Part shown: piece after piece, positions 1 through 35,171 of the stretch | How the letters are laid out: every line of letters begins with the position of its first letter | Numbering within the stretch: position 1 is the stretch's first letter | From: Chiayiivirga sp. | GTDB taxonomy: Bacteria > Pseudomonadota > Gammaproteobacteria > Xanthomonadales > Xanthomonadaceae | DNA length: 38,431 nt | Direction: 5' to 3' | Assembly: GCA_046590875.1 (NCBI GenBank) | Contig: JBKJTK010000238.1 | Coordinates: forward strand, 1 to 38,431 | Program-made: the position numbers and the translations under genes | Notes under the pieces: generated by a model | The model's database searches: none | Told to the model about the DNA's origin: nothing | What the model saw: the letters and a program-made list of their open reading frames with translations, nothing else

Positions 1-585
1 GCGGTCGCGATCCAGATGATCATCAACAAGGAACTGGGTCTGAATTTCTGCGAGAACCCCTGGCAGGGCAGCTTCATCGTCGACAAGCTCACCGACATCG
101 TCGAGGAAGCGGTCTACAAGGAATTCGAAGCGATCAGTGAGCGCGGCGGCGTGCTCGGCGCCATGGACACCATGTACCAGCGCGGAAAAATCCAGGAAGA
201 ATCGATGTACTACGAGCACAAGAAACACGATGGCAGCCTGCCGCTGGTCGGCGTCAATACCTTCTTGCCCCGCGAACACGGCGGCGACATCGTCACCGAG
301 ATCGAGTTGATCCGTTCCACCGAAGCCGAGAAGGGCCAGCAAATCGACAACGTGCTGCGCTACCAGCAACTCCGCAACACCGCTCATCTCCCTCCCCTTC
401 AAGGGGAGGGTAGGGGTGAGGATGGTGTTGCTCGCTCAGGATCAGGCCTCGCCTACCTCCAATCCACCGCCCGCAACCGCCAGAACGTTTTCGCCTCGCT
501 GATGGAAGCCGTAAAAACCCACAGCCTCGGCCAGATCAGCCACGCGCTCTACGACGTGGGCGGCGAATACCGGCGCAATATGTAG
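1..585 (+). CDS. icmF: 3' part of a fused isobutyryl-CoA mutase (IcmF) / methylmalonyl-CoA-mutase-family protein; partial, enters from the left edge
   Basis: Frame 1 is open from base 1. The translation NPWQGSFIVDKLTDIVEEAV...GVLGAMDTMYQRGKIQEESMYYEHKKHDGSLPLVGVNTF...VGGEYRRNM* matches the substrate-barrel C-terminus of MCM-family mutases. Ending right after the barrel, with no C-terminal B12 domain, is the IcmF layout. TAG at 583-585. Confidence 0.8.
   Translation, partial: AVAIQMIINKELGLNFCENPWQGSFIVDKLTDIVEEAVYKEFEAISERGGVLGAMDTMYQRGKIQEESMYYEHKKHDGSLPLVGVNTFLPREHGGDIVTEIELIRSTEAEKGQQIDNVLRYQQLRNTAHLPPLQGEGRGEDGVARSGSGLAYLQSTARNRQNVFASLMEAVKTHSLGQISHALYDVGGEYRRNM
388..427 (+). repeat. REP-like hairpin unit (ccctcccc-ttcaa-ggggaggg plus tail ggggtgaggatggtg) lying in frame inside icmF
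   Basis: ctccctccccttcaaggggagggtaggggtgaggatggtg matches 37 of 40 nt of the copy at 35172-35211. It is also the reverse complement of 35086-35125. It encodes LPPLQGEGRGEDG. Confidence 0.8.
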
Positions 586-597
586 CCGGCCCCGACA

Positions 598-1119
598 ATG
601 GCCTTCAACGTCCGCGAGATATTCGGTGCCCTCAACGGCGCAGAGGTGGATTACGTCGTCGTCGGCGGGCTCGCCGTCATCCTGCACGGCTACCTGCGAG
701 CAACCGCCGATCTTGATCTGGCCCTTGGCTTGTCGCCCGAAAACGCCCGGCGCGGCATGGTCGCGCTAGCATCCATCGGGCTGCGGCCAAGGTTGCCGGT
801 GGCACTGGAAGACTTCGCCGACGCTGACAGGCGCGCGGAGTGGATCAATACACGCAACATGCTCGTGTTCCCATTGTGGGACCCGGCCAATCCGTTGCGG
901 TCGGTTGATGTTTTCATGAACGAACCCATTGCCTTTAGCCGCCTGCTGGAAAATGCGGTCATCAAGGACCTGGGTGAATTGCCGGTGCCGGTGGCTTCCA
1001 TTGACCATCTGATAGAGATGAAGCGACTGGCCGGGCGGCCACGCGATCTGGAGGACATTGATAAGCTGCAGCAGATTCGTGATGCGAAACAGGCCGATAC
1101 CGATGACAGCCAATCTTGA
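598..1119 (+). CDS. Minimal nucleotidyltransferase-fold protein (AbiEii/DUF1814-like, pol-beta NTase superfamily), 173 aa
   Basis: ATG lies 12 nt after the icmF stop. NTase signature VVGGLAVILHGYLRATADLDLAL, a third acidic motif SVDVF, and a C-terminal IEMKRLAGRPRDLEDIDKL helix typical of AbiEii-type NTases. High GC3. Confidence 0.75.
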   Translation: MAFNVREIFGALNGAEVDYVVVGGLAVILHGYLRATADLDLALGLSPENARRGMVALASIGLRPRLPVALEDFADADRRAEWINTRNMLVFPLWDPANPLRSVDVFMNEPIAFSRLLENAVIKDLGELPVPVASIDHLIEMKRLAGRPRDLEDIDKLQQIRDAKQADTDDSQS

Positions 1120-1315
1120 ACAGGTGCCAAGCTGCACCTTTGAGGACGCCGAGCGCGAGCACCTTCGCGCGTGGATGGGACTCAGCACAGCAGCAAAAAT
1201 CGATTTCTTCGAGGAAATGATAGAGCTGGCCTACCAGAGCGGCGCCTTGTCGCCCGAGCGCTTGGCGTTGCGAGCGCGCGTGCCCAACGAACCACCAACG
1301 CCTCGGTCTAGTTGA
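1103..1315 (+). CDS. Small hypothetical protein (70 aa), putative partner of the upstream NTase
   Basis: ATG at 1103 overlaps the NTase 3' end by 17 nt. The frame is GC3-rich. Weak colinear similarity to the ORF after the second NTase (IDFFEEMIEL...PER vs IDLMEVVEAL...PER). No strong RBS. Confidence 0.5.
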   Translation: MTANLEQVPSCTFEDAEREHLRAWMGLSTAAKIDFFEEMIELAYQSGALSPERLALRARVPNEPPTPRSS

Positions 1316-1413
1316 TCATCGACATTCTGATGGAAGCGGTGAAGGCGCATTTGCGGGGGCAGACCAGCCATGCCCTCCATGACGTCGGCGGCGAATACCG
1401 CCGCAACAAGTGA
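1312..1413 (+). pseudogene. Ghost of an icmF allele: junction codons (L)IID fused in frame to the last 29 codons of icmF
   Basis: 1313-1324 tgatcatcgaca matches icmF 17-28 with 1 mismatch. 1327-1413 aligns ungapped with 499-585, about 64/87 nt by hand count. Translation ILMEAVKAHLRGQTSHALHDVGGEYRRNK* compares with SLMEAVKTHSLGQISHALYDVGGEYRRNM*. Confidence 0.75.
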
Positions 1414-1943
1414 CGATGTCACGCCTCGCCGATCAGATCCGCGAGGCCGTCGCGGCCTTCGCCGAACTCGCGTTGCCGCACGCGCTCATCGGGGGTCTCG
1501 CACTCGCCGCGCACAAGGTGGTGCGCGCGACGCGCGACGTCGACTTCCTGGTCGATGCCCACGACGCTGACCGCGTACACGATATGGTGATCCGGCTCGG
1601 CTACCGCTGCGTGCACCGCAGCCCCGACGCGGCGAACTACCTGCGCGGCGACGAAGGCCTGGATTTTCTCTACGCACATCGCCCCGAAGCCCGCCGCCTC
1701 TTGCTCGAAGCCGACCATCGCGACAGCGCGCTAGGCCGCCTGCGCGTGGTCAGCGCCGAAGGCCTGATCGGCTTCAAGTTGCAGGGCTATGTGAACGATC
1801 CGCGTCGCGTCCAGGACCTGGAAGACATCCGCAACCTGCTGCGCGTGAATGCCGATCAGCTCGACATGCAAGAGATCCGCCGCTACTTTGCGATCTTCGA
1901 CCGCGAATCCCTGCTCGATGACCTCCTCACCGACCGACGCTGA
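1410..1943 (+). CDS. Second minimal nucleotidyltransferase-fold protein (AbiEii/DUF1814-like), about 175 aa
   Basis: GTG at 1410 overlaps the ghost icmF TGA; the first ATG is at 1416. Signature LIGGLALAAHKVVRATRDVDFLV, GLDFLY, and C-terminal GFKLQGYVNDPRRVQDLEDIRNL. Only distantly related to the 598-1119 protein. Confidence 0.7.
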   Translation: MTMSRLADQIREAVAAFAELALPHALIGGLALAAHKVVRATRDVDFLVDAHDADRVHDMVIRLGYRCVHRSPDAANYLRGDEGLDFLYAHRPEARRLLLEADHRDSALGRLRVVSAEGLIGFKLQGYVNDPRRVQDLEDIRNLLRVNADQLDMQEIRRYFAIFDRESLLDDLLTDRR

Positions 1944-1980
1944 CAACGGTGCACCGCCGACCGAAGCCCCGCTCACCGTC

Positions 1981-2118
1981 GTGGCCGGCTGGCACTCCGT
2001 GCTGCCCGTGCCCCAGTACCCAATAGAGGCCTGGATCGACTTGATGGAAGTGGTGGAGGCGTTGTGTCCGGTGTGGCCGGAGCGTGATGGTGCGGGGCAG
2101 TGCGATTATCGGTTGTGA
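1981..2118 (+). CDS. Possible small partner ORF of the second NTase (start uncertain; may be decayed)
   Basis: This frame stays open through the NTase stop. GTG at 1981 gives MAGWHSVLPVPQYPIEAWIDLMEVVEALCPVWPER..., which is colinear with the 1103-1315 product. The only ATG (1849) would give a 95-nt overlap with a junk-like N-terminus. Confidence 0.3.
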   Translation: MAGWHSVLPVPQYPIEAWIDLMEVVEALCPVWPERDGAGQCDYRL

Positions 2119-2197
2119 GAGCACGGGGCAACTCGCGCTGAGGCACCCCACTTTCTCCGGCCTTACCCAGGCTTCAACGCCTGACTTCTTTGAGATA

Positions 2198-2677
2198 TCA
2201 GCCCTTCCGCGCCGCCTCGATCGCGCCGATATCGATCTTCCGCATTTCCATCATGGCGTCGAACGCACGCTTGGCCGCCGCGCGGTCGGGATCGGTAATT
2301 GCCGCGGTCAGCGCGCGTGGCGTGATCTGCCACGACAGCCCCCACTTGTCCTTGCACCAGCCGCATGCGCTTTCCTCGCCGCCGTTGTCGACGATCGCGT
2401 TCCACAAGCGGTCCGTTTCGGCCTGGTCATCGGTCGCGACCTGGAACGAGAACGCCTCGGAGTGCGCGAAAGCCGGCCCACCGTTGAGGCCGAAACAGGG
2501 GATGCCGAGCACGGTGAATTCGACGGTCAGGATGTCGCCCTGCTTGCCGTCTGGGAAGTCGCTTGGTGCGCGAAACACCGCACCCACCTCGCTATCCGGA
2601 AACGTCTTGGCGTAAAACGCCGCGGCATCGAGCGCGGTGCCGTCAAACCAAAGGCATAGCGTATTCTTGCTGACCAT
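2198..2677 (-). CDS. VOC-superfamily protein, PhnB-like / 3-demethylubiquinone-9 3-methyltransferase-domain family (159 aa)
   Basis: MVSKNTLCLWFDGTALDAAAFYAKTFPDSEVG...LTVEFTVLGIPCFGLNGGP...CGWCKDKWGLSWQI are family hallmarks. AGGAGA lies 7 nt upstream of the ATG at 2677. The longer 299-aa ORF extension is R/P-rich junk. Confidence 0.85.
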   Translation of the reverse strand: MVSKNTLCLWFDGTALDAAAFYAKTFPDSEVGAVFRAPSDFPDGKQGDILTVEFTVLGIPCFGLNGGPAFAHSEAFSFQVATDDQAETDRLWNAIVDNGGEESACGWCKDKWGLSWQITPRALTAAITDPDRAAAKRAFDAMMEMRKIDIGAIEAARKG

Positions 2678-2787
2678 ATCGCTTCTCCTGGATAAGGTGG
2701 ATCGGTTCATGCCCGCAGCAAACGCGGGTGCAACGCGCCTTATTCCATGGCACGGGAAATAGGCGCGCAATGGCCGAAGGACAAGTC

Positions 2788-3456
2788 TCAATCCCGATCG
2801 GGCGCCCCCAATGGAAAATACGCGCGATACGGCCGCGCCTCGTCCACGCAATGTTTGAACGAAGGCCGCGCCAGCAGCCGTTCGCGATACGCGCGGACAT
2901 GGGCGAAGCGCGCATCGATCGGGTGCGTCCAGTCGGCGTAGAACAGGAAGGGTGCGGCGGCGCAGTCGGCGAGGGTGAAGGTCGGACCGACCGCCCATTC
3001 GCGCGTGGTCATGCGTGCGTCCAGCCAGACGTAAGCGGTCTCGAGCATGCCGCGGGCTTGGCGGACACCGTGGGGATCGCGGTCGGCTTCGGGGCACATG
3101 CGATCAAACACCACCTTTTGTTGTGGCGTGGAAACGTAGTTGTCGAAGAAGCGGTCCAGCATCCGCACCTCGAGCGCGACGTCGCGATCCTCAGGGATCA
3201 GCTTCACCGGACCGGGATAGTGCAGGTCCAGGTATTCGATGACGCAGGTCGCTTCGATCACCGTGCGGTCGCCGTCGACCAGCACCGGAAAACGCCGCAT
3301 CGGCCACAATGCCGTTAGTTCGGCATTGGCTTGCGCGTCCTCCAGGTTGCGGTAGTCGAACGGCGTCTGGTTTTCGTACAACGCAATCAGCGCTTTCTGG
3401 CTGTAGGATGAGAATGGATGGGCGTACAGGCGCAAACGGGGGGTGGGTATGTGCAT
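2788..3456 (-). CDS. Glutathione S-transferase family protein (222 aa)
   Basis: The N-terminal thioredoxin-like part is LYAHPFSSYSQKALIALYENQTPFDYRNL...FPVLVDGDRTVIEATCVIEYL, followed by a helical C-terminal domain. Start chosen at MHIPTPRL. Confidence 0.85.
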   Translation of the reverse strand: MHIPTPRLRLYAHPFSSYSQKALIALYENQTPFDYRNLEDAQANAELTALWPMRRFPVLVDGDRTVIEATCVIEYLDLHYPGPVKLIPEDRDVALEVRMLDRFFDNYVSTPQQKVVFDRMCPEADRDPHGVRQARGMLETAYVWLDARMTTREWAVGPTFTLADCAAAPFLFYADWTHPIDARFAHVRAYRERLLARPSFKHCVDEARPYRAYFPLGAPDRD

Positions 3457-3487
3457 TTTCCGGCGGTAGGAAGATACGACTGACAGG

Positions 3488-3555
3488 ATGATCATCGACA
3501 AGGAACTCGGCTTCAACTACTGCGAAAACCCGGGCAGAGCAGTTTCATCGCCGGC
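3488..3555 (+). pseudogene. Ghost fragment of an icmF allele (internal piece, frameshifted and truncated)
   Basis: atgatcatcgacaaggaactcggcttcaactactgcgaaaaccc-gggcagagcagtttcatcgcc aligns with icmF 16-81 (MIIDKELGFNYCENP vs MIINKELGLNFCENP). It has a 1-nt deletion. No similarity exists left of 3486. Confidence 0.75.
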
Positions 3556-3603
3556 ATGCTGCCTTCGTTCTCGCACGGATCATCGCTATTTAAGCATCTC
3601 AAC

Positions 3604-4152
3604 ATGGCCACCATTCGCAGTCCCCTGCAGGAACAACTACTGAAAGCCGGTTTGGCGAAGAAGTCCAAGCTCGATCAGGTGGCGCGCGAACAGGCCAAGC
3701 AACGCAATGCCAAGTCCGCGCCGGCGCCCAGCACTGACCACGGCGACGCCGAGCGCGTGCGGTTGGAAAAGGTGGAACGCGACCGTGCGCTATCGTCCGA
3801 ACGCAATACGCATGCGCGCGCCCTGGAACTGCGCGCCCAGGTGCGGCAGATCGTCGAGCTGAACAAGCTGAAGCCCGACGGCGAAATCGATTACCGCTTC
3901 ACCCACGGCGGTGTGATCCACAGCGTGCTGGTCACCGATGGCGTGCGCCGGCAGTTGGCCAGCGGCAGCCTGGTCATTGCGCGTCACGACTCCAGCTACG
4001 CGATCATCCCGCGCGCGGCCGCCGAGAAAGTTGAAGCGCGCGATGCCTCAATGATCGCGCTCGACCACCGGCGCACGCCGCCGCCGGCGTCGGATGCCTC
4101 CGACGACGACTACTACCGCCAGTTCAAGGTGCCGGATGATCTGGTCTGGTAG
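3604..4152 (+). CDS. DUF2058 (YaiL-like) protein, 182 aa
   Basis: The N-terminus MATIRSPLQEQLLKAGLAKKSKLDQ, a charged K/R/E-rich middle and the acidic tail DDDYYRQFKVPDDLVW are typical of DUF2058/YaiL. Confidence 0.8.
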   Translation: MATIRSPLQEQLLKAGLAKKSKLDQVAREQAKQRNAKSAPAPSTDHGDAERVRLEKVERDRALSSERNTHARALELRAQVRQIVELNKLKPDGEIDYRFTHGGVIHSVLVTDGVRRQLASGSLVIARHDSSYAIIPRAAAEKVEARDASMIALDHRRTPPPASDASDDDYYRQFKVPDDLVW

Positions 4153-4173
4153 GACACGTTGCGGGGCGGCAGC

Positions 4174-5148
4174 ATGATCGTCCCCGAATACTGGGCGGAA
4201 GGACGGGCGCAGCATCGCGCGCCGAACAAGCAGGTCACGATTCACCGCTTCGGTTGGTCGGACACGAGCCAGGTGGACGCGCAATTCATGGCCGACGCGC
4301 GTGTCGCCGAGGCCCTGGCGCGGTTTCTGGCCGGCGAGGACATCAGACGACGCGATCACAAGCTTGCCTACAACGGCGCCGAAGGCTTGCCTATCCGCGA
4401 GGAGGTGCTGGAACGCCATGGCACCGCTGTGATCACGCGCAATATTTACGGCGCGCGCTGCCTCAATGTGCCGGAGGTGCTGTTCGCGGATGTCGATTTT
4501 TCGATCCGGAAGCCGGTGCTCCCTGCCGCCGTCAGGGTCACATTGGTGGTCGCCGCGATCTGCGCGGGTGGCTATTGGTACGACTGGACGGTGGCGGTGC
4601 TGATGGGCGTCGTCGTCGGGCTCGCCGGCCATGCGTTATCGAAGTTCTTGACCGCTGCACGAGAACGAACAGCGGGTGCACCCGAGCCACGGGCGCGCGC
4701 GAAGGTTGATCGCTTCATGGCGTCGCATCCGGACTGGCGCGTGAGGATGTATCGCACGCCGGCCGGTCTTCGATTGCTGGCGTTGCACCGCTTGTTCGAT
4801 CCGACCGAAGCCGCTGTGAGGGAGTTCTTCGAGGCGATCGGTGCCGACAAGGTCTACGCCCGCATGTGCGAGAACCAGCATTGCTTTCGTGCGCGGCTTA
4901 GCGGCAAGCCCTGGCGTGTCGGCATGACCGCACATCTGGCGCCACGCCCGGGCGTGTGGCCGATCAAACCCGAGCACCTGCCTCGCCGCGAGCAGTGGAT
5001 AGCCGAGTACGAGCGCCGCGCAGCGGGGTACTCCGCGTGTCGTTACGTTGCGACATTCGGCATTGGCGCGGTGAACGCTGAAGCGGACCGCATCCGGGAA
5101 CTGCACGATGAAATGACGCGCGCTACACAGGCATTGCCGATGGCTTGA
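4174..5148 (+). CDS. Hypothetical membrane protein: two soluble domains split by a predicted two-helix hairpin (324 aa)
   Basis: ATG at 4174; the ORF-track start at 4159 is TTG. Hydrophobic stretch AAVRVTLVVAAICAGGYWYDWTVAVLMGVVVGLAGHAL. GC3-rich along its whole length. I recognise no family. It starts 21 nt after the DUF2058 gene. Confidence 0.65.
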   Translation: MIVPEYWAEGRAQHRAPNKQVTIHRFGWSDTSQVDAQFMADARVAEALARFLAGEDIRRRDHKLAYNGAEGLPIREEVLERHGTAVITRNIYGARCLNVPEVLFADVDFSIRKPVLPAAVRVTLVVAAICAGGYWYDWTVAVLMGVVVGLAGHALSKFLTAARERTAGAPEPRARAKVDRFMASHPDWRVRMYRTPAGLRLLALHRLFDPTEAAVREFFEAIGADKVYARMCENQHCFRARLSGKPWRVGMTAHLAPRPGVWPIKPEHLPRREQWIAEYERRAAGYSACRYVATFGIGAVNAEADRIRELHDEMTRATQALPMA

Positions 5149-5340
5149 TGCTCGCGGACGTGAAGAAATGTCCGACTTTCGTGTCACCGCCAATCAGAAG
5201 CTCCGTTCCGGCGCATACGACACGCGATGCGACGGATTTCACTCTTGCGCTGGCGGGCGGGCGACCGGCCTACTCGAAGGGTGCGCGGTTGAGTCCTTTG
5301 TGGCCGCTTCGGATGCATTCCTTCTACTGACTAGACAACC

Positions 5341-5766
5341 ATGAATCCCAACACTCCGATGCTCGCGCCCGTGATCGCCCTGGTCCTGTGGTCGGCGCTG
5401 ATCTGGGCCTGGATGTATGCCACGCGCATTCCGGCGATTGTGAAAGCGCGGATGAGGCTCGATCCGATGGCGCCGAACGGTGTGCAGATGAGCACGCTGC
5501 CGGCGGTCGTGCGCTGGAAGGCCGACAACTACAACCATCTGATGGAGCAGCCGACGCTGTTTTACGCGGTCGCGCTGAGCCTGGCGACGCTGGGTGACGC
5601 GTCGTTGGCGAGCGTGTGGCTGGCTTGGGCCTACGTCGCGTCGCGTGTGGTGCACTCGCTGGTACAGGTGCTGGTGAACATCATCACCCTGCGCTTTGCC
5701 GTGTTTTCGGTTTCATCGCTGATCTTGTTCGCGCTCGCGGGCCGAGCCGCACTTCGGGTGTTCTGA
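5341..5766 (+). CDS. MAPEG-family membrane protein (141 aa)
   Basis: Four hydrophobic segments, and RWKADNYNHLMEQPTLFYAVAL resembles the MAPEG core motif. Confidence 0.8.
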   Translation: MNPNTPMLAPVIALVLWSALIWAWMYATRIPAIVKARMRLDPMAPNGVQMSTLPAVVRWKADNYNHLMEQPTLFYAVALSLATLGDASLASVWLAWAYVASRVVHSLVQVLVNIITLRFAVFSVSSLILFALAGRAALRVF

Positions 5767-6154
5767 GGTCCCAGGTTCAGGCGACTCTGCATTATCGTCC
5801 GAGAAGCGGAGATTCCGCTCCTCTATCTGGACCAGCGCCTCGTTCGCTCCAAAAACTGGAACGCGCCTTCCAGTCTTGTACATCGAAAACGAGCCCGAGA
5901 ACGCGCGAATCAATTCCTGGGCACAGTGGCTGTTGCCGCTGCTGCTCGCTGGCTTCGGTATTGCACTCGCCTTGGGGTGGACCACTGGCCTGCGCGAGCG
6001 GCGCTTCGGGTTTCGCTGGAACAACGATTGAAAGAACGGCGCTGTGGTGCCGGCCCAACGGCACGCCGGAAAACAAGCAGAAGTACCGACGCGTCGAGGT
6101 GATCGTTCGAACGCGCTGATGCGGTCGCGCCAGCGCAAGTGGCATGCTTGCGCG

Positions 6155-6270
6155 CCCTTCGATACCTCAGGGCGAACGGACTTTCGCTCTGAACCACCAG
6201 CACTCCCAATTCCGTTCGCCCTGATACTTCGACAGGCTCAGTATAGAGTCGCCTGCGGCGATCGAAGGGC
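6155..6270. repeat. MITE/REP-like element with nested inverted repeats
   Basis: Outer arms are cccttcgat (6155-6163) and atcgaaggg (6262-6270). Inner arms are cagggcgaacgg (6168-6179) and ccgttcgccctg (6212-6223). Related copies lie at 10091-10201 and 23732-23747. It shares cttcgacaggctca (6227-6240) with 24811-24824. Confidence 0.6.
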
Positions 6271-6288
6271 CAGCGACCACGAGCCCTA

Positions 6289-7419
6289 TTACTTCGCCGG
6301 CAAGAACGCCTTGTTTACGCAGCGCTGATAGCGCTCCTGCACCTTGGTGGCAAACCACTCGGTGGTGAGCTTGCGGGTGATCTTCGGACTTTCCAGGGTG
6401 ATGCGCGGCATCACGGCGCGTGGAAGGGTTTTTCCCGCCATCCGCTCGGCCAGGGCGAAGACGCGCTCGTACAATTCGGATTGTTCGAAATCGAAGCGGT
6501 CGCCCTGTTCGAGTACGCGGCGAATCGCGGCGTCGCTGAGGCCGAGTTGCGTGCGCAGCGAACGCACCGCGGCCTCGGTGGCGCCGGACTTGCGATCGCG
6601 TCGACCGCTATCGTGCAGGATCAAGTCGCCGTCGAGTGCGAGCGGCACGCCTGAGGCCACCGTCACCGCCGCTTGAAATGCGGCGTTGCGGCTCGCGTAC
6701 CAGCCGGCGTTGAAGTCGGCATAGCGATACAGGTGGCGCTGGTATGAATTCTCGTAGCCCAGCAGGTGCGCGATGCCGAAGTACATGCCGCCGCGCCGGG
6801 TGAAGACCTCGTGGCGAATCGAATCGGCGCTGGCGTAGGGGTAGCCGATCTCGTCGGCATGCCGTTCGGAAAACGCGATGCTGACCTGCATTGGTCCACC
6901 GGTGCGCACCGGATTGGCGTCGCCGAACAAGCGCTGTCCCAGTGGCACCTTACCGATGAAGTCCTCGAACAGGCGGCTCAGTTCTTTTTCGCTGCGCACC
7001 GCGGCGATGCGCTGGCCGTAGGATTTGCCATTGGGAGAAGACAGGCTCAATGCCGCACGTACCAGGACCTGCGGGATACGCAGGTGTGCCGCGCGACGGT
7101 CGATTTCGCCGCGCGCGATCTTCGCGAGATTCGGCACCACCGGATCGGCGCTGTATGTGGATTCCTGCTCGGTCACCGCCAGCGCGGCGCAGAGGTTCTC
7201 GGTGCTGGGCGGGATATCCAGCAGTTGGAACGCGGACTGGATGTCCGTGGCCCAGCCTTCGCGATCCGCAAGATTCGACGGCAATAGCTGCACCAGCTGC
7301 GTACGTACCTCGACGGGCGAACGCGGTGGCGCTATGGAGCGCGGCGGCGTGGCACAGCCGCCCAGCAGCAGCAGCGCGACGCACGCCAGCGGCGCGCCGG
7401 CGCGGCCGCCAATCCTCAT
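6289..7419 (-). CDS. DUF1615 domain-containing lipoprotein (376 aa)
   Basis: Signal peptide with lipobox LLLLGGC. Conserved stretches VTEQESTYSADPVVPNLAKIA, GPMQVS and ADFNAGWYASRNAAFQ are typical of DUF1615. Confidence 0.85.
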   Translation of the reverse strand: MRIGGRAGAPLACVALLLLGGCATPPRSIAPPRSPVEVRTQLVQLLPSNLADREGWATDIQSAFQLLDIPPSTENLCAALAVTEQESTYSADPVVPNLAKIARGEIDRRAAHLRIPQVLVRAALSLSSPNGKSYGQRIAAVRSEKELSRLFEDFIGKVPLGQRLFGDANPVRTGGPMQVSIAFSERHADEIGYPYASADSIRHEVFTRRGGMYFGIAHLLGYENSYQRHLYRYADFNAGWYASRNAAFQAAVTVASGVPLALDGDLILHDSGRRDRKSGATEAAVRSLRTQLGLSDAAIRRVLEQGDRFDFEQSELYERVFALAERMAGKTLPRAVMPRITLESPKITRKLTTEWFATKVQERYQRCVNKAFLPAK

Positions 7420-7589
7420 TTGGCGGCTGGCGGTTCCGACGCGTCGCTGGGGGCAGGCGCCGGCTTCGGCTCCGCAGCGGCCTTCGCGGCCTCGCGCGCC
7501 TCGCGTTTGCGCGCGTCCTTTGCGTCCTGCTCTTTCTTCTTGGCGAGTTCGCGTTGCTTCTTTTCAAACGAATAATTGGGCTTTGCCAC
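7416..7589 (-). CDS. Small lysine/alanine-rich hypothetical protein (57 aa), not in the ORF track
   Basis: GTG at 7589 is preceded by GAGG about 8 nt upstream. Product is VAKPNYSFEKKQRELAKKKEQDAKDARKREAREAAKAAAEPKPAPAPSDASEPPAAK*. Its TGA overlaps the ATG of the DUF1615 gene (ATGA). Confidence 0.5.
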   Translation of the reverse strand: MAKPNYSFEKKQRELAKKKEQDAKDARKREAREAAKAAAEPKPAPAPSDASEPPAAK

Positions 7590-7795
7590 GGGTCTGCCTC
7601 AGTAGGGGGTGATGCAGTGTAATGGCCCGGAGCCAGGCTGCGACAGCCGAACACGCGCAGTCGCAAAACCCGGGAAGCCATGGCCCGCGTCTGGCGCAGG
7701 TTGCCGGGCCGGTAGCTGTGGCTGTAAAACGGTACACACCAGCGCGTGCCTTGGCGCGCCACTCAGGCTCGCTGGGCCGCTCTCGGGGGAGAAAC

Positions 7796-9694
7796 ATGCT
7801 TATCCGGAACCGATTGGTGCTGCTGGCCGTGATGCCGGCGGCGCTGCTGTGTACGGCCGTCGTCCAGGCCGCCGATCCGCTGGTCTATCGCGGCGTGCTG
7901 AACGACAACGGCGCGCCGGCCAACGGCCGCTACGACCTGGAATTTCGCCTGCGCGGCGGCAAGGACAGTCCGCTGTCAATGGTCGGCCCGGTCCGGGTGG
8001 AGGACGTGCAGGTCAGCGATGGGGCGTTTGCCATCGTCTTGCCGGTGGATCAGACCTTGTTGCCGGCGAGCGGCTGGATCGAGGTTGCGGTACGCGACGG
8101 CGGCAGCGAGGCCGTGTTCGAGCCGCTGCCCGACAAGCAGCCGTTTGCACTGTTCGCCAAGGCGGTTTGCCCGGGGAGTTGGGAGGTGGTCGGCAATCCG
8201 GGCATTGCGGCGGGGAATTTTCTTGGGACCACGGACAACGCTCCGCTGGAGCTACGAGTGAACAATGCTCGAGTGTTCCGCGCCAGTCAGGCCCAGATTG
8301 ACTTCGGTATTGGGCTGAACGTGGGTACCAACGTGATTGCCGGACATGCATCGAACACCGCTCCAATCGATGCCGTCGGTGCAACGATCGCCGGAGGAGG
8401 AGGATCGTTTGGCGCATCTTTGCGGCCAAACGCCGTTGGAGGGCAGTGGGGAACAGTCGGCGGAGGTTCGAACAATGCGGCGCTTGGCGGCCATGCAGTC
8501 GTCGCCGGGGGGATTGGCAACCAAGCGCTTGGTGGTGCGAGCTCGGTCGGCGGAGGCGAGAACAACCTTGCCCTTGAAGCGCATGCCGCTGTGGCTGGAG
8601 GCGCGCAGAATGCAGCACGTGGCAGTTCATCCTTTGTCGGTGGAGGCTTTCAAAATCAAGCGAATGGACAGGCCTCCGTGGTTCCGGGCGGAGACAACAA
8701 CTTCGCAGACGGCGACTACAGTTTCGCCGCGGGCCGCAGGGCCAAGATCGACGCCGTGCACGACGGCACCTTCGTCTGGGCCGACGGCACCGACGCCGAT
8801 TTTGCCTCGACCGGGGTCAACCAGTTCCTGATCCGCGCGGGCGGCGGGGTGGGCCTGGGTACCGGCGCGCCCTTCGAGCAACTCACCATCAACGGCAACC
8901 TCGCCTTCACCCGGGATGCGGCGCGCAGTCTCTATGTCGGACAGGAGCCCGACAACACCACTTCGGGCAAATCGCTTACGGTTCGGGCCGGCAGCGCCAG
9001 CAACACCGGTATCCCGTTCCAGGCGCGGCTCGGCGGCGACCTCGTGCTGCAGGCGGGCAACGCGTTCAACGGCAACCAAGCAAATCAGGACGGCGGCGAC
9101 GTGATCCTGCGCTCGGGGGCGAATTGGCGCACCGCCGATACCGTTGGCTTTTCCGGTGGCGACATCGTGTTACAGACCGGCACCCACCTCAATGTCTTCA
9201 ACGAGCGCATGCGGGTGTTGGATACGGGTGAGGTCAGCATTGCCGTCTTGGGCGCGGCGGGCGCGACAAGTTTGTGCCGCAACGCCAGCAACCAGATCGC
9301 GACCTGCTCCTCCAGCGCCCGCTACAAGGACGCCATCGTCGACAGCGCGCTCGGGCTGGCCACGGTCGCCGCGTTGCGAACGGTGGATTACGTGTGGAAG
9401 GACAGCGGCGACGCCGATGTCGGCCTGGTGGCAGAAGAGGTTGCCGCAGTCGCACCGCGACTGGTGACGCGCAACGCCCAAGGGGCGATTGAAGGCGTGA
9501 AATACGACCGCCTGGCTGCGGTGCTGGTGCAGGCGATGCAGCAGCAGCAGGCGACGATCGAGACCTTGCAGCAGCAGTTGGCCGCGCAACAGACCAGCCA
9601 TGCGCAATCCTTGCGTACGCTCACCGAGCGTGTCGATGCGCTGCTGGCGACGCCGTCGTTGGTATTGAGCGGGGTGCCAGAGGCGACGCCATGA
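7796..9694 (+). CDS. Secreted tail-fibre-like protein with C-terminal Peptidase_S74 intramolecular-chaperone domain (632 aa)
   Basis: ATG at 7796 follows GGGGGAG. Signal peptide MLIRNRLVLLAVMPAALLCTAVVQAAD. N-terminal YRGVLNDNGAPANGRYDLEFRL domain. Central GGxxNxAxG repeats. C-terminal SSARYKDAIV...VGLVAEEVAAVAPRLV...GVKYDRLAAVLVQAMQQQQATIETLQQQL matches the S74 motif Sxx(R)xK plus a coiled coil. Confidence 0.85.
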   Translation: MLIRNRLVLLAVMPAALLCTAVVQAADPLVYRGVLNDNGAPANGRYDLEFRLRGGKDSPLSMVGPVRVEDVQVSDGAFAIVLPVDQTLLPASGWIEVAVRDGGSEAVFEPLPDKQPFALFAKAVCPGSWEVVGNPGIAAGNFLGTTDNAPLELRVNNARVFRASQAQIDFGIGLNVGTNVIAGHASNTAPIDAVGATIAGGGGSFGASLRPNAVGGQWGTVGGGSNNAALGGHAVVAGGIGNQALGGASSVGGGENNLALEAHAAVAGGAQNAARGSSSFVGGGFQNQANGQASVVPGGDNNFADGDYSFAAGRRAKIDAVHDGTFVWADGTDADFASTGVNQFLIRAGGGVGLGTGAPFEQLTINGNLAFTRDAARSLYVGQEPDNTTSGKSLTVRAGSASNTGIPFQARLGGDLVLQAGNAFNGNQANQDGGDVILRSGANWRTADTVGFSGGDIVLQTGTHLNVFNERMRVLDTGEVSIAVLGAAGATSLCRNASNQIATCSSSARYKDAIVDSALGLATVAALRTVDYVWKDSGDADVGLVAEEVAAVAPRLVTRNAQGAIEGVKYDRLAAVLVQAMQQQQATIETLQQQLAAQQTSHAQSLRTLTERVDALLATPSLVLSGVPEATP

Positions 9695-10337: not shown

Positions 10338-12479
10338 CTACGGTGCGCCCTCGAAACCACTCGCAAACACGCGACCGTCCGGCAACACTTCCCACAACGG
10401 CCCATCCGATGTGACCTGGATGCCTTGCACTCCGCCGTAAAGCGACACCGGTAGCTGGCTGCCGGTGGCGATCGATCCGCCGACCGAATCCATCCCTTTC
10501 ATCAACACCACGGTGGCGTTGCCGCGGCTGGGATGGGTCAGTGCGATCGACCAACGATCGTCCAGATCGGTGAGGCTGGCGGTCACCGCGGCTTCGCCCA
10601 CATCGCGGCCGCTGACCACGTTGAGGAAGTAGTTTTCCACGCTGCCACTGCTGTCGAGTTCCAGTCGGAACTGGCCGGCAGCCGGGTTTCCGGCGCTGTC
10701 TTCGTTGACGATTCGGTAAGTCGGAGCCGCAGGCAGCAGGGTGCGCAGGTCCACGATCTGGTCGCCGACCGTGGCGCTCACGCTGCTGCTGCCGACGGTC
10801 GGGTTGGTTTCGAAATGCATCACGAAGGTACGGTTGACCTGCTCGGCCGGAACTTGCACCGCCAGCGGTTCGCCGAGCCCTACCCAGGCGTCGGTGTTGT
10901 AAAAACTCATCAGCGAATCGCTGCTGGAGCGCATGCGGTCCAGTATCAGCAGCGTCTGCAGCGGTCGGATGAAGAGGAACTCGCGTGTCGCCCGATCGGC
11001 GTAGGGCCAGTCGACGCGGCGGCCGTCGGTATTGCGATACGCATCGGTGTAGTCGGCGACCAGAAATGCATAGTCGGGGTGATGCTGCAAGCGCACGACT
11101 TCGGGCATGCCGTTGGGCTGATCGTCGCGCGGCAGACCCGGGGCAATGATGCGGGGACCGCCGCCGATCCAGCGCCCGGTGGTGCGCCCCTGGAACAGCA
11201 GTCCGTTGTGCGCGAGATGATCTCCGGTATCGACAACGCCGGTGCCACCGAAGCCCGTGAGGTTCTCGGCATAGCCGACGGATTCGCGCGTCAGCCAGCG
11301 ACCCTGACGCCAGATCTGGAAACTGCCGGCATCCAGATGGCGATGTTCGACGCCACCCGGAGTGCCGATCTGCAGATGCACCTGCATCGCCTCGTCGTCG
11401 TGGCGGTTGCGAATGTCGAAGACCATGGCGCCAGGGGCGTAGTAGTCGAGCGGCAAGGGCGCAAGATCGGCCGCATTGCCCGCGCCGCCGAGTGCGTCGA
11501 ACAACCATTGCCGTCCGGCACTGGTATCAGCCAACCACGCTCGTATGTGTCGCGCGTTACCCGAGGCCGGCTCGCGCTGGCCCATGAAGCGCGCGAAATC
11601 GCCGAGATAGTCGCGCTGGTTGATCACCCCGCCATTGCGAAAATTCTCGTCGTCGTTGAACGGAATCAGCAGGTGCCCGCCGGAGAACTCGCCGGTGATG
11701 CTGGTCGGCCCCGGCGTCGTTCCGTAGATCAGCGCGTAGATGCCCTCGCGGAAGAACGCGGTGCGCTGATACGGATCGAGACCATAGTCCGCCGCTGAAG
11801 CAAACGGAATCATCGGGTAGGACAGCATCACCGCGCCGTAGTCGCCGCCTTCAACAAACACGCCGCCGCGGCCGAAATTGTTGTACCAGCTGGCAAACCA
11901 GGTATCCAGACGCAGGTCGAGCGAGTTGTTGATGAACTCCTGCGCGCGCGGGTTGTCGCCGAAGCTGACAATGCCCCACGCCAGATTGTTGCTCACCCGG
12001 CCCCAGAAATAGTTGTTGGCCTCCGAGCCCCGGTTCGCGAAACTGTCGGCGTTTTCAGTATCCAGATAGCCGTTCCAGCGCGCGACCAGGGTCGTGATCT
12101 GCGACGGTGTCAGCCGGTGGTGGCACCAGTCATAGATTTGCAGCAGCGCGTCACCTTGCTGGCGCATGGCGTCACGGAAGCTGCCAGAGAACTGCCACGT
12201 CGCAAGGTAGGCAGCGGCCAGATCGCAGTCGGCATTGCTCTGCGTCATGAGGCCGCGCAACGCGCGCGCCCGGTTGAGTTGGGTCTGATCCGAAGCTGGA
12301 GGCAGCGCGAAAGGAGTGGTCAGGAAATAGGCGCGCGCTTGCGTCAGACGCGCCGCGTTGCCGTACCAAAGCCGCGGATGGGTCGACGGGAGATTGAGCT
12401 GTGCCGCCGAGGTCGCACCGGCGACGAGGGCGCCGCCGAGGATCAGCGCCGCAATTTTCAGCTTGTTCGCGATGGGCAT
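10338..12479 (-). CDS. Secreted heparinase II/III-like polysaccharide lyase family protein (713 aa)
   Basis: Signal peptide MPIANKLKIAALILGGALVAGATSAA. N-terminal THPRLWY helical region. VEHRHLDAGSFQIWRQGRWLTRE resembles the heparinase II/III H-x-D-x-G-S-F core. Confidence 0.75.
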   Translation of the reverse strand: MPIANKLKIAALILGGALVAGATSAAQLNLPSTHPRLWYGNAARLTQARAYFLTTPFALPPASDQTQLNRARALRGLMTQSNADCDLAAAYLATWQFSGSFRDAMRQQGDALLQIYDWCHHRLTPSQITTLVARWNGYLDTENADSFANRGSEANNYFWGRVSNNLAWGIVSFGDNPRAQEFINNSLDLRLDTWFASWYNNFGRGGVFVEGGDYGAVMLSYPMIPFASAADYGLDPYQRTAFFREGIYALIYGTTPGPTSITGEFSGGHLLIPFNDDENFRNGGVINQRDYLGDFARFMGQREPASGNARHIRAWLADTSAGRQWLFDALGGAGNAADLAPLPLDYYAPGAMVFDIRNRHDDEAMQVHLQIGTPGGVEHRHLDAGSFQIWRQGRWLTRESVGYAENLTGFGGTGVVDTGDHLAHNGLLFQGRTTGRWIGGGPRIIAPGLPRDDQPNGMPEVVRLQHHPDYAFLVADYTDAYRNTDGRRVDWPYADRATREFLFIRPLQTLLILDRMRSSSDSLMSFYNTDAWVGLGEPLAVQVPAEQVNRTFVMHFETNPTVGSSSVSATVGDQIVDLRTLLPAAPTYRIVNEDSAGNPAAGQFRLELDSSGSVENYFLNVVSGRDVGEAAVTASLTDLDDRWSIALTHPSRGNATVVLMKGMDSVGGSIATGSQLPVSLYGGVQGIQVTSDGPLWEVLPDGRVFASGFEGAP

Positions 12480-14270: not shown

Positions 14271-16982
14271 ATGCGATCGATTTGCTTGCGACTCCTGATG
14301 CTGGTTCTTATGTTCGGCGCGTGCAGCGATGCACTGCAAGCCGCTCGGCTGTCGGAACGTTCCCCGGTGCGACTCGGCGTGTGGTGGGATCCGGCGCGCA
14401 GCGGCAACGGCTTCGAGCTGTTCCAGGGGGGCGACCAAACCGCCGTGGTCTGGTACACCCATCGGCCGGATGGTTCGCCGGTGTGGTACATGGCGGTGGC
14501 GTCCTTCGATGCGGAAGGCCGATGGGATGCGCCGCTGTATCGTCATCGCTGGGTCGACGGCGCACCCGCCGCGCCAACCCTTGTAGGTCGGCTCCGGTTC
14601 GAACGCACGCACTTCGAGGCGCTGGTCTTGCATTGGTCGCTCGATGGTCGCGAGGGCACGCAGGAACTCGAACCGTTTCCGATATCGGGTGTCGTGACGG
14701 AGATCGATCACTCCGGTGCCTGGTACGACCCAAAGCGTTCCGGCTTCGGGCTCAGTCTCACCGAGCAGGGCGAATGGCTGGCCGCTGGCCTGTACTTCTA
14801 CGATGCCGCCGGCGAGCCAACCTGGCGCGTGGGCAGCAACGACGGGCGCGGCCGGAAACTGGCGATGCTCGGCATGACGGGTGCTTGTCCGGGATGTGAA
14901 CCCCGCAGTACGCAACGATTGGATGAAGGCCAATTGCAACTCGACTTCAGCAGCGAAACCGCGCTGCGGGCGGACTACGCCGGTGCCGCATCTGCCGCGT
15001 GGTCGCTCGACGGCGACCTGGTGCAGCTCAGCACACCGGCGTCGCGGCGTCCGGCGGATCGTCAGCTCGCGGGATTCGACGACGCCACCACGCTACGCAC
15101 CTTCCTGGACCAGACCTTGCTGACAGCGAGCGGGAACTCACCCTTCATGGGGGTCGATTTTTCTTCGCCCCCACCGCCGTCCGAGAGTTTCTCCACGACC
15201 AACGTGCAGGAGATCGGCGTCGACGAAGCGGATCGCCTGAAGACCGACGGCACCTGGCTTTACGCCATCGCAAAGGATGCGCAAGGACGCGATCGAAGCG
15301 CGCTGCGCGTGGCCGAGGCGCGCGAAGGTGGAAGCCAGTTGCTGCTGCACGGCGAGATCGCCTTGCCGGAATCCACACAGCCCATCGGTTACAGCGGGCT
15401 CTACGTCGCCGACGACAGGCTGACGACGCTGCAGGGGACCAGCCCGAGCGGTTTCGGCATCGAGCCGCTCTGGCTCAGCGCGCCGGCGTGGATCGCGGGA
15501 TCGACCCACGTTGCGTTGTTCGATCGCGTTTCGCCAGCGGCGCCTCGTGCTCTGTGGAAAGCGGAAATCGACGCTCACCTCGTCGCCAGTCGCCGTATCG
15601 GCGAGCGCCTCTACCTGGTGCTGCGAAAGACCATCGCCGTGCCCGGCATCGAATTCGGTGCGAGCCTCGATGCGGCGCGCGACGAACGCAATCGCGCGTT
15701 GCTGAGCCAGATCCCGCTGACCGAATTGCTGCCGCGCATCCGCGTCGGCACTGGCGAGTGGCGGGCGTTGGTCAAGCCGGAGGACGTCTTCCTGCCGGTC
15801 GTGGGGGCGCTGCTGCCGTCACCGCAGTTCATCACGGTGGTGGCGATCGATCTCCATGCGCCTGATGAATTGCGTTCGCTGGCGGTCGTGGGTGCGGTGA
15901 ATGCGGTCTATGTGTCCACGGAGCGCATGTATCTCGCGACCTCGCGCTCCAGCCTCGTCTTCAATTCCCAACTTGGCTATCACCCGACCGGATTTCCTGT
16001 GACGGACGTGCACGAGATCGCGCTGGGCGCCCAGGGACCGAACTTCGCGGCCACGGGCGCGGTCGAGGGTTATCTGGATCGCGATCCGGATCGTGCCCCG
16101 TTCCGTTTCAGCGAGCGCGACGGCAAGCTGCGCATGGTCACGGTGGGCGGGCTCTGGGGCGAACTGGGACAGAATCGACTGACGGTACTGGAGCGTTCGA
16201 CGATCGCGCCCGGGCTGCTGCGCACCCTGTCCCACCTGCCCAATCGCGATCGGCCCGCGCCGCTGGGCAAGCGCGACGAGCAACTCTACGGCACGCGTTT
16301 CGTCGGCGATCGCTTGTATGCCGTCACCTTCCTGAAGACCGATCCGCTGTACGTGGTGGACCTGTCCGACCCGGCCGCACCGCGCATCGCCGGCGCGCTC
16401 GAACTGCCCGGATTCTCCGACTATCTGCATCCGGTGCGCGAAGACGTGCTGTTGGGCATCGGACTCGATGCGCGTCCGGCGCAATCGAGTTGGGGCGACA
16501 ACCAGTTCGCGTGGTTCCAGGGATTGCTGTTCAGTCTGTTCGATGTCAGCGATCCGAGCCGTCCACGCCTGTTGCAGCAAGTTAACCTGGGCAAGCGCGG
16601 CAGCGGCAGCGCGATCCTGTCCAACCATCACGCGCTTAGCGTGCTGCCAGGCAGCAACGGCGTCAGTTTCGCATTGCCGGTGCGCGTGCACGAATCCGAC
16701 GGCAGCGAGCCGATCGCGCCGCCCGACAACTACCCGTACCCCTGGTCCTGGAGCGGACTGCAAAAGCTCGAAGTCACGGGTAGCAACGCGAGCAATGCGC
16801 GCCTGCTACCGGGTCCGGCGCTGGTAACCAACCGACGCAGTACCGGCGGTCCGGCGATCTACCCCGACGACGCCCTTTACGGCGCTCGCTCGGTACAGTT
16901 CGCTCGCGGCACGGTGTACTTCGAGAATGGTCGCTTCTGGCGTACCGATCTCTCCGGCACCCAGGTCAGCGGACCGCACTGA
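14271..16982 (+). CDS. Secreted/lipoprotein beta-propeller domain protein (Beta_propel, PF09826-like; 903 aa)
   Basis: GGGAAGCGAGG lies upstream of the ATG at 14271. Signal MRSICLRLLMLVLMFGAC. Hallmarks are TNVQEIGVDEADRLKTDGTWLYAI and GTRFVGDRLYAVTFLKTDPLYVVDLSDPAAPRIAGALELPGFSDYLHPV. Confidence 0.85.
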   Translation: MRSICLRLLMLVLMFGACSDALQAARLSERSPVRLGVWWDPARSGNGFELFQGGDQTAVVWYTHRPDGSPVWYMAVASFDAEGRWDAPLYRHRWVDGAPAAPTLVGRLRFERTHFEALVLHWSLDGREGTQELEPFPISGVVTEIDHSGAWYDPKRSGFGLSLTEQGEWLAAGLYFYDAAGEPTWRVGSNDGRGRKLAMLGMTGACPGCEPRSTQRLDEGQLQLDFSSETALRADYAGAASAAWSLDGDLVQLSTPASRRPADRQLAGFDDATTLRTFLDQTLLTASGNSPFMGVDFSSPPPPSESFSTTNVQEIGVDEADRLKTDGTWLYAIAKDAQGRDRSALRVAEAREGGSQLLLHGEIALPESTQPIGYSGLYVADDRLTTLQGTSPSGFGIEPLWLSAPAWIAGSTHVALFDRVSPAAPRALWKAEIDAHLVASRRIGERLYLVLRKTIAVPGIEFGASLDAARDERNRALLSQIPLTELLPRIRVGTGEWRALVKPEDVFLPVVGALLPSPQFITVVAIDLHAPDELRSLAVVGAVNAVYVSTERMYLATSRSSLVFNSQLGYHPTGFPVTDVHEIALGAQGPNFAATGAVEGYLDRDPDRAPFRFSERDGKLRMVTVGGLWGELGQNRLTVLERSTIAPGLLRTLSHLPNRDRPAPLGKRDEQLYGTRFVGDRLYAVTFLKTDPLYVVDLSDPAAPRIAGALELPGFSDYLHPVREDVLLGIGLDARPAQSSWGDNQFAWFQGLLFSLFDVSDPSRPRLLQQVNLGKRGSGSAILSNHHALSVLPGSNGVSFALPVRVHESDGSEPIAPPDNYPYPWSWSGLQKLEVTGSNASNARLLPGPALVTNRRSTGGPAIYPDDALYGARSVQFARGTVYFENGRFWRTDLSGTQVSGPH

Positions 16983-35017: not shown

Positions 35018-35085
35018 GCGCGGGAAGTCTCGGGGTAACGGCGGAATTCTACGCGTCGCCGTGGCTACATCAACCAGGAGATCGA

Positions 35086-35125
35086 CACCATCCTCACCCC
35101 AGCCCTCTCCTTGAAGGAGAGGGAG
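35086..35125 (-). repeat. REP-like hairpin unit, inverted copy
   Basis: Its reverse complement ctccctctccttcaaggagagggctggggtgaggatggtg matches the 35172-35211 copy. The two stem differences are compensatory: ccctctcc/ggagaggg versus ccctcccc/ggggaggg. Confidence 0.8.
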
Positions 35126-35171
35126 AAAGGCCGCGCGGCGATGTCAGAGAACGTTAGCGTCGGTGCTGTTG

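Follow-up and report, generated by a model that had tools for sequence, protein, structure and literature searches.

Serial accretion of small gene units behind the 3′ end of icmF in Chiayiivirga sp. and other Lysobacterales

How does an ordinary metabolic gene come to be followed by displaced copies of its own 3′ end, interspersed with small genes unrelated to its function? The question is raised by a 38,431-nucleotide (nt) stretch of Chiayiivirga sp. (GCA_046590875.1, contig JBKJTK010000238.1, positions 1 to 38,431), hereafter the window, to whose whole length all positions refer unless a related Lysobacterales locus is given by its L-number. The window opens with the last 194 codons and the stop of icmF (1..585, plus strand; Pfam MM_CoA_mutase, E 1.3e-21), which form the resident tail and our homology anchor and along which "tail positions" are numbered from the window start. 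The gene product is an IcmF-type fused isobutyryl-CoA mutase, and the IcmF proteins of relatives have a B12-binding, MeaB, and mutase architecture of about 1190 amino acids (aa); the protein is distinct from the IcmF of type VI secretion. Behind icmF and its tail (tail0), the order is a nucleotidyltransferase gene with a small open reading frame (ORF) (NT1-sm1), a displaced icmF copy (ghost1), a second such pair (NT2-sm2), the genes of a VOC-type protein and a glutathione S-transferase (GST), a second displaced copy (ghost2), and a DUF2058 gene. The evidence set out below supports reading this region as a stack of units laid down serially at the icmF 3′ end, the newest nearest the gene, and points to an order-wide insertion hot spot of Lysobacterales in the stretch past the icmF stop. 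Our literature search returned no description of an icmF-linked hot spot.

The displaced copies themselves are secure. A blastn comparison of 1–600 with the window finds icmF 499–578 again at 1327–1406 (76% identity, gap-free, E 4e-11) and icmF 15–89 again at 3487–3560 (80% over 75 columns with one gap, E 9e-13), and a repeat search of the window recovered the identical two pairs. Ghost1 (1312..1413, plus strand) combines a 12-mer (1313–1324) with a copy of the terminal 87 icmF nucleotides, stop included (1327–1413); its reading frame and stop are kept (LMEAVKAHLRGQTSHALHDVGGEYRRNK versus LMEAVKTHSLGQISHALYDVGGEYRRNM, each followed by the stop), and its differences from icmF fall 3/5/15 on codon positions 1/2/3. 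Ghost2 (3487..3560, plus strand) is a copy of icmF 15–89 with the 12-mer at 3489–3500 and a 1-nt deletion, before which the differences by codon position are 3/1/7. The sequence TGATCATCGACA occurs in the window at 1313 and 3489 only, on the plus strand only, and TGATCATCAACA occurs once, at 17; the chance expectation for a given 12-mer is about 0.005 in 38 kb, counting both strands. To the left of each 12-mer, similarity is gone within 0–3 nt. The first-pass annotation, made from the letters of the window, had described these repeats and their sharp left edges, and formal alignment bears out both. Ghost1 finds its best match in the native tail of a Chiayiivirga relative (81%, against 76% for its own resident tail), and ghost2 reaches up to 87% with the native icmF of other species. 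Judged by its sequence, ghost1 is a former functional tail that stood ahead of NT2, and ghost2 is the oldest displaced fragment. The region upstream of DUF2058, which would place the deletion that truncated ghost2, is not alignable to relatives.

To place the window among its relatives, we ran scans with the IcmF tail, which retrieved 80 species genomes and 80 metagenome contigs, all Lysobacterales; all comparisons are cross-species, and the window icmF end has 73–85% amino-acid identity with the icmF ends of these 160 loci (two scans). Three look-ups that began from NT2 homologues each landed directly behind icmF. Most loci have neither the NT1 nor the NT2 cassette. NT1-sm1 stands behind the icmF stop in L001, L003, L020, L051, L066, L069, and L121, and NT2-sm2 does so in L052, L084, L090, L104, L156, and L167; both occur in the window order (NT1-sm1 then NT2-sm2) in L001 and L121 and in the reverse order in L130. 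The flank is polymorphic, with empty, single-unit, and double-unit loci, which is the variation in unit number that serial accretion, as put forward in the first-pass annotation, had called for. Synteny in the 154 loci surveyed for ghosts below ends at the icmF stop codon. In eight close genome pairs, homology extends through icmF to within a few nucleotides of the stop (about 50 nt past it in one pair) and then ends, so that a conserved anchor gene marks a fixed left boundary of synteny, as in displacement arrays. Downstream of icmF, gene content varies greatly between loci, 11 of 81 having the commonest ORF family, and DUF2058 lies near icmF in a few relatives (+560 nt in L038, +1053 nt in L115).

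Two comparisons connect a displaced tail in one genome with a functional tail in another. Window 1316–2089, comprising ghost1, NT2, and sm2, is colinear at 80.5% identity with 9901–10673 of L084, a Chiayiivirga relative in which the corresponding part is a functional tail followed by NT2 and sm2. Similarly, L001 1291..2132 is colinear at 88.6% with L090 from tail position 477 to the end plus NT2 and sm2, and by sequence L090 (icmF-NT2-sm2) resembles a "before" state whose "after" is L001 (icmF-NT1-sm1-ghost-NT2-sm2). L084 in turn has, behind sm2, a ghost of tail 260–569 directly ahead of a DUF4160/DUF2442 pair (11088–11616) that starts 2–3 nt past the stop position of the ghost tail, which shows a third kind of two-gene module that was once directly behind icmF. 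Behind many ghosts, a gene start lies within a few nucleotides downstream; each ghost thus seems to have served as the functional tail while the following unit was proximal.

The divergence of the ghosts bears on where they came from. Loci whose downstream sequence is 1 kb or longer number 154; in a comparison of each with its own icmF tail, 27 (about 17%) proved to carry ghosts downstream, all on the icmF strand; minus-strand matches are to REP-like elements only. Over the last 28 codons of 22 ghosts, substitutions relative to the resident tail number 46/31/152 by codon position, the third position accounting for 152 of 229 (66%), and 14 of the 22 are free of indels. The third-position excess and the scarcity of indels indicate that the copies diverged as functional alleles in different lineages, and this allele-like divergence implies that incoming DNA brought its own icmF end. 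The displaced copies are accordingly horizontally acquired distinct alleles, not local duplicates; the first-pass annotation had likewise traced the window ghosts to diverged functional alleles. All ghosts share the orientation of icmF, whose resident copy is complete through the stop; the displaced gene end thus lies at the distal junction while the incoming end keeps the gene whole.

The boundaries of the ghosts are of two kinds. About 22 of about 30 reach the stop codon, and their left ends are scattered over tail positions −1, 12, 15, 66, 103, 134, 137, 179, 186, 216, 216, 260, 297, 303, 363, 410, 450, 471, 484, 487, 498, 499, 515, 522, 529, and 559. What comes after the NT2-sm2 cassette differs: a ghost from 137, 260, 450, or 515, or no ghost. 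The right joint of a unit may also lie beyond the old tail altogether: at the start of NT2 in L121, where NT2 follows sm1 with no ghost between; inside NT1 in L130, where the first 55 NT1 codons are lost behind NT2-sm2; and inside sm2 in L003, where the sm2 3′ end alone remains behind NT1-sm1. With more than 20 tail positions and these three loci, the right joints are variable and non-homologous, as in displacement arrays. Two parts of the first-pass model are not supported by this survey. Its single 12-nt junction is not supported as attachment site, given that left ends in about 26 other loci are spread over the last 560 nt (−1 to 559) and that identity does not drop at the 12-mer when close genomes are paired, and new units do not all end at one junction, since some end at the start of, or inside, older cassettes.

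We consider homology-anchored displacement, in which a crossover within icmF is coupled to an illegitimate joint on the right and the process is repeated, as in Rhs and type VI secretion system (T6SS) orphan arrays, to be the probable explanation, and hold it with moderate confidence. Foreign DNA starting inside icmF would be taken in, by transformation or another route, with the help of host recombination functions, presumably including RecA. At the left end, a homologous crossover could occur anywhere in the highly conserved icmF body, and the incoming piece would supply its own icmF tail, which becomes the new functional tail. The right end would be without homology and would be joined illegitimately at a variable point. 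If this joint fell inside the resident tail, the remainder of the old tail would survive downstream as a ghost, ahead of the gene formerly behind icmF; if it lay further to the right, the locus would lose the old tail together with part of the old cassette. Repeated rounds would yield the order icmF and tail0, NT1-sm1, ghost1, NT2-sm2 (with VOC and GST), ghost2, and DUF2058.

Several observations weigh against this explanation. For loci that share NT1 or NT2, residuals of tail versus body identity give no clear signal that tail and cassette travelled together, and NT2 distance correlates weakly with adjacent-tail and body distances (Spearman rho 0.1–0.18); the functional tail of L001 and its ghost are about equally close to L090 (77/87 and 76/87). 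Four or five ghost pieces (ghost2, perhaps ghost1, L020, and L152/L163) begin no more than about 18 nt from the 12-mer; a uniform spread of ends over about 860 nt predicts about 0.6 in this interval, which was chosen after seeing the data. A single fragment, in L166, reaches further upstream than the 12-mer. At a site that reads AAC or ACC/ACG in each of the 80 native genes checked, both window ghosts have GAC, and a derived 14-mer, TGATCATCGACATT, is common to ghost1 and the L152 piece. Finally, the comparisons are all between species, with no pair recent enough to read microhomology at a joint. A local hot spot near the 12-mer would be compatible with these points, as would horizontal travel of ghost pieces together with cargo as a second homology arm. 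The L166 fragment (15953–16305) is itself of some interest: counted from the window start, its 353 nt span icmF −297 to +55 and so cross the 12-mer, and it is 96% identical to the resident gene, lies 5.4 kb downstream of icmF, and adjoins a TPR/sulfotransferase gene.

The alternative that fares best, which we nonetheless think unlikely, is a self-propagating, repeat-flanked cassette, in which the repeats of a tail-cassette-ghost unit serve as homology arms, perhaps through a looped-out circle, and the unit enters a naive icmF by homologous recombination alone. The ghost would then be recreated with an inherited left end and the recipient's downstream genes pushed distally, the address of the cassette being a copy of its target. 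Similar left ends in different genomes are what such inheritance would produce, and they are found at 484/499 after sm1 (L001 and the window) and at 216 (L016 and L092), as well as at 134/137 in L162 and L156, where the cargo is different; the 14-mer shared by window ghost1 and L152, and the resemblance of the L001 ghost end and NT2 to the sister genome L090, point in the same direction. The varied sequel of NT2-sm2 noted above, with ghosts from four positions or none, means however that many independent first events would be needed anyway. In addition, the sm1-ghost junctions of the window and L001 align unconvincingly, their NT1-sm1 units belong to different subfamilies, and long direct repeats would delete cargo as well as deliver it.

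The second alternative is that of the first-pass annotation, namely integrative elements that use the 12-mer TGATCATCRACA as attachment site and bring a surrogate 3′ end of about 570 nt, the recombinase acting in trans or having been lost and the shorter ghosts being later deletions. This we regard as improbable. The exact 12-mer at the left edge of both window ghosts speaks for it, and it is joined by a near full-length ghost in L020 that starts at CCAGATGATCATCAACAAG, by the L163 pieces [−1..34] and [363..515], which look like an internally deleted full ghost, by the perfect 10-bp palindrome formed by GATGATCATC, and by the lack of any ghost upstream of the 12-mer except that of L166. The edges near the 12-mer nevertheless lie at −1, 12, 13–15, and 16–17, differing by up to 18 nt, and not at the one nucleotide that a precise crossover site would give at every junction; most ghosts begin elsewhere yet retain the stop, so that deletions would always have to spare the 3′ end; and in close genome pairs no identity break was seen at the 12-mer.

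A recombinase within or beside the element, as in the integrase-mediated class, was not found among the genes checked. We detected no integrase or transposase domain among 30 window ORFs scanned against Pfam, as the first-pass annotation had already noted by eye, no recombinase among 20 cargo ORFs of ghost-bearing loci (Pfam), and no integrase in the Pfam lists of genes around icmF (about 10 kb on each side in L081–L086, about 4 kb in L167–L168). The sole transposase-type match around the looked-up relatives is a Y1_Tnp (IS200/RAYT-type) gene in L167 (6941–7633, minus strand), 2.4 kb downstream of NT2, which may be related to the REP-like elements around the locus. The window has no tRNA gene, and its positions 1–8000 have no Rfam match. 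Between loci, there is no conserved sequence past the sm2 stop codon or the cassette stops, and inverted repeats at unit ends are not significant. Units of 0.7 kb are, moreover, too small for an integrase gene. The integrating element with a surrogate 3′ end proposed at first pass thus lacks a recombinase among the genes checked, a tRNA in the window, and a conserved site at the cassette ends. An integron was rejected for similar reasons: no integrase among the window ORFs scanned, no conserved sequence past the cassette stops, and no significant inverted repeats at unit ends.

A caveat attaches to the 12-mer itself. In the resident gene, it is held at 17–28 by motif A (ATGATCATCAACAAG, encoding MIINK; 16..30, plus strand), a 15-mer that is the same in 71 of 80 species. 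Every motif A codon is the choice preferred with respect to GC content at third positions (GC3), and the near-invariance of motif A and the 12-mer is explained by codon bias with no extra explanation needed; the idea that the 12-mer is unusually conserved was rejected on this ground. Motif B (TTCATCGTCGACAAGCTC, encoding FIVDKL; 73..90, plus strand) is a DNA-level near-repeat of motif A inside icmF, with the general form TTCATC[G/A]TCGACAAGCT and the peptide FI[V/I]DKL. The ghost1 18-mer TTGATCATCGACATTCTG matches motif A at 11–12 of 18 positions and motif B at 13–15 of 18 in many relatives, and when the ghost1 start is taken as a 24-mer, the two fits are about equal. Because motif B fits the ghost1 start at least as well as 16–33 does, the identity of the two window junctions may be partly coincidental; the origin of the 1313 12-mer from icmF 17–28 is uncertain, motif B (73–90) being a possible alternative source by its sequence, which also counts against an attachment site. 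Of the 12-mer said to be shared by the ghosts, then, the presence at 1313 and 3489 stands, whereas the copy at 1313 may derive from motif B. More generally, the pair ATGATCATCAACAAG and TTCATCGTCGACAAGCTC, with TTCATCATCGACAAGCTG in some species, can mimic a shared junction in truncated copies.

A third alternative, local tandem duplication of the icmF end within a single genome, with neutral decay and unrelated insertions afterwards and without horizontal transfer, would account for ghosts that are direct repeats near the gene and in some cases 91–96% identical to the resident tail, but we consider it very improbable because neutral decay would spread substitutions evenly instead of placing 66% (152/229) on third positions with few indels, ghost1 is closer to a native tail from another genus (81%) than to its own (76%), and cassette content is patchy across the phylogeny.

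We can now turn to the cargo. NT1 (598..1119, plus strand) encodes a small nucleotidyltransferase of 173 aa that starts 13 nt past the icmF stop and matches Pfam DUF6036 (E 1.9e-5), a family that no paper in our literature search mentions. It weakly matches MenT1 in the PDB (8AN4) over residues 5–163 (E 4e-3), and its translation contains a GG...DLD motif. Its putative partner sm1, a 70-aa ORF that overlaps the NT1 end (1103..1315, plus strand), has a TGA stop that forms the first three bases of the 1313 12-mer. Homologues of sm1 stand behind NT1 in about nine loci; the conserved core stops near ...SPERLALR, and the last 12 or so codons are specific to the window. No family match to sm1 was found in Pfam, NCBIfam, or PADLOC.

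NT2 (1416..1943, plus strand), 175 aa and starting 3 nt past the ghost1 stop, is a MenT1-like nucleotidyltransferase that matches Pfam NTP_transf_5 and AbiEii and, weakly, PDB 8AN4 (E 2e-4). Its AlphaFold model (pLDDT 86, pTM 0.78) has MenT1 as best fold match (TM 0.74, E 1.7e-8), the top matches being MenT1 8AN5/8AN4 (TM 0.68–0.75). In an alignment, G26, G27, and D41 are invariant and D43 nearly so; NT2 thus combines a MenT-like nucleotidyltransferase fold with the catalytic GG...DxD motif. There are 2237 NT2 homologues, and the best match in the collections searched is 93%, on a 1.2-kb contig, the best match to the icmF tail being 85%. The putative partner sm2 (1918..2118, plus strand; 66 aa) overlaps the NT2 end by 26 nt. 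A 66-aa gene is called at the equivalent place in L081–L086, tblastn matches lie behind NT2 in more than 12 loci, and homology between loci ends at the sm2 stop codon; NCBIfam and PADLOC contain no family match. One sm2 segment, TGATGGAAGTGGTGGAGGCG (DLMEVVEAL; 2042–2061), shares 90% identity with the beginning of the tail copy in ghost1 (1328–1347, LMEAVKA). This likeness is probably due to chance, yet the sm2 motif LMEAVEAL is conserved in relatives.

Given the weak MenT1 matches of both nucleotidyltransferases and the fold model of NT2, the NT-sm units are plausibly toxin-antitoxin pairs. MenT1 of Mycobacterium tuberculosis is a tRNA-modifying toxin neutralized by the 68-aa antitoxin MenA1, whose gene is usually upstream of menT1 (PMC10435456). 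NT2 resembles the MenAT1 system (PDB 8AN4/8AN5) in its fold, its GG...DxD motif, its weak sequence similarity, and its 66–70-aa partner ORF, comparable in length to MenA1. It differs in that identity is about 20% and that the small ORF is downstream of, and overlaps, the nucleotidyltransferase gene, and a toxin-antitoxin role here is putative. NCBIfam and PADLOC searches gave no assignment for the cargo. In the plasmid collection, NT2 has no match and NT1 distant matches only, and neither has a match on viral contigs.

The remaining genes between the two ghosts are of a different kind. A weak terminator-like hairpin (2168..2183, plus strand) separates sm2 from a converging gene for a VOC/PhnB-like protein with a 3-dmu-9_3-mt domain (2198..2680, minus strand; Pfam E 3e-47), which is followed by the GST gene (2788..3456, minus strand; Pfam GST_N and GST_C). 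Promoter and terminator scans of the window gave matches no more numerous than the shuffled expectation. Relatives, too, have VOC genes in their variable region (L084 at +7.9 kb, L124, L029), and the window GST is 77–82% identical to GST genes of L084 and L124, which have other neighbors. Given these other arrangements, VOC and GST (2198–3456), part of the segment 1414–3488 that the first-pass annotation treated as one cargo, may not be mobile cargo. DUF2058 (3604..4152, plus strand; Pfam E 6e-54) is the first gene past the stack.

Elsewhere, the genes between icmF and a ghost tail include HigBA, X-Tfe effectors with LprI-like proteins, regulators, and enzymes. In several relatives, X-Tfe type IV secretion effectors (XVIPCD and peptidoglycan-binding domains), LprI-like putative immunity genes, and HigB/HigA pairs occupy this interval (L053 11626–16943, L043 10799–12826, L153 8441–9973, L163 11420–12970). 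The persisting cargo is mostly addictive or conflict modules: MenT1-like nucleotidyltransferase and small-ORF pairs, HigBA, DUF4160/DUF2442, and type IV secretion system effector/immunity genes. We tentatively raise the possibility, which we consider a minority one, that the nucleotidyltransferase/partner modules are hitch-hikers of icmF: they would carry an icmF-end copy as address, start 1–30 nt past the stop for icmF-driven expression, and spread through Lysobacterales by homologous recombination alone with the ghost as second arm, which would make them recombinase-free cassettes that act by target mimicry. On this reading, the cluster of edges near the palindromic GATGATCATC could mark a preferred break or joint point.

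Other features of the anchor gene and the window deserve mention. The icmF body has a GC3 of about 0.95, which over the last 120 nt is lower by 0.12 on average, and the last 15 or so codons (window 540–585; L001–L166) are A/T-ending (CAT, TAT, GGT, AAT) in most Lysobacterales; a role of this low-GC3 end as ribosome-binding or coupling signal for a downstream cassette was rejected because coupled loci carry fewer A/T-ending codons (p 0.018, opposite direction). A REP-like palindromic element (ctccctccccttcaaggggagggtagg...) lies in frame within the variable linker of icmF (window 385–440) and adds about 18 extra codons (AHLPPLQGEGRGEDGV...). Two further copies, 90–93% identical, are found 34.5 kb away at 35085–35126 (minus strand) and 35174–35216 (plus strand). 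REP-like hairpins also stand right behind the icmF stop in L028, L070, L119, L130, L152, and L162, and the IcmF of L130 has repeated linker insertions. The 690-aa product of window 7622–9694 has glycine-rich repeats and, at its C terminus, a Peptidase_S74 (endosialidase chaperone) domain; it is tail-fibre-like, but no other phage genes lie close by.

Comparison with known systems places homology-anchored displacement at icmF closest to arrays of toxin genes. For the T6SS effector-immunity modules of Vibrio cholerae, sequential displacement by homology-facilitated illegitimate recombination was proposed (Kirchberger et al. 2017, PMC5361080), and the same model was also proposed for Rhs orphan arrays (PMC5361080). 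Like the V. cholerae arrays, the icmF locus has a conserved upstream gene as homologous anchor, a non-homologous right end, and no integrase, and new modules lie next to the anchor while old ones are shifted downstream with remnants in a stepwise build-up. Unlike those arrays, in which the displaced piece is a variable toxin end and orphan immunity genes are of obvious benefit, the anchor here is a housekeeping metabolic enzyme with a conserved tail, the relics are useless, and the cargo is unrelated to the anchor's function. At rhs and cdiA loci, which PMC5361080 and PMC3150448 cite, C-terminal displacement likewise gives rise to orphan arrays, in which same-orientation 3′ fragments stand behind a full gene, each with part of the conserved region at its start and a small partner gene of its own behind it, as at icmF; their fragments are alternative toxic tips that can be recombined into use, whereas icmF ghosts encode the resident tail's peptide. 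Integrase-mediated insertion into the 3′ part of a gene with a surrogate end is exemplified by e14 and phage 21 in icd of Escherichia coli and by many genomic islands. It shares with our locus the incoming replacement gene end, the original end at the far side of the insert, and the potential for tandem arrays; such elements, however, carry an integrase gene and cross over at one precise site, an identical core lying at both junctions, and neither feature was found here. Integron arrays are similar in that small promoterless cassettes lie beside a fixed point, the newest proximal and older ones pushed back, yet the icmF locus has no intI, attI, or attC-like element, its cassette ends share no sequence, and each unit is preceded by a copy of the neighboring gene's end.

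These results indicate that 3′-end displacement reaches beyond the polymorphic toxin genes (rhs, cdiA, and T6SS effectors, for example): throughout a bacterial order, it also takes place at a metabolic gene that is ordinary and highly conserved. Since each ghost tail dates and orders an insertion, the locus holds a readable, layered record of its acquisitions. For genome annotation, short icmF-like pseudogene fragments should be taken as footprints of displacement and not as att sites. For the biology of Lysobacterales, the icmF flank is a concrete case of toxin-antitoxin and effector-immunity modules accumulating at a fixed chromosomal address without an integrase, and it bears on how hot spots for defence and competition genes form without one.

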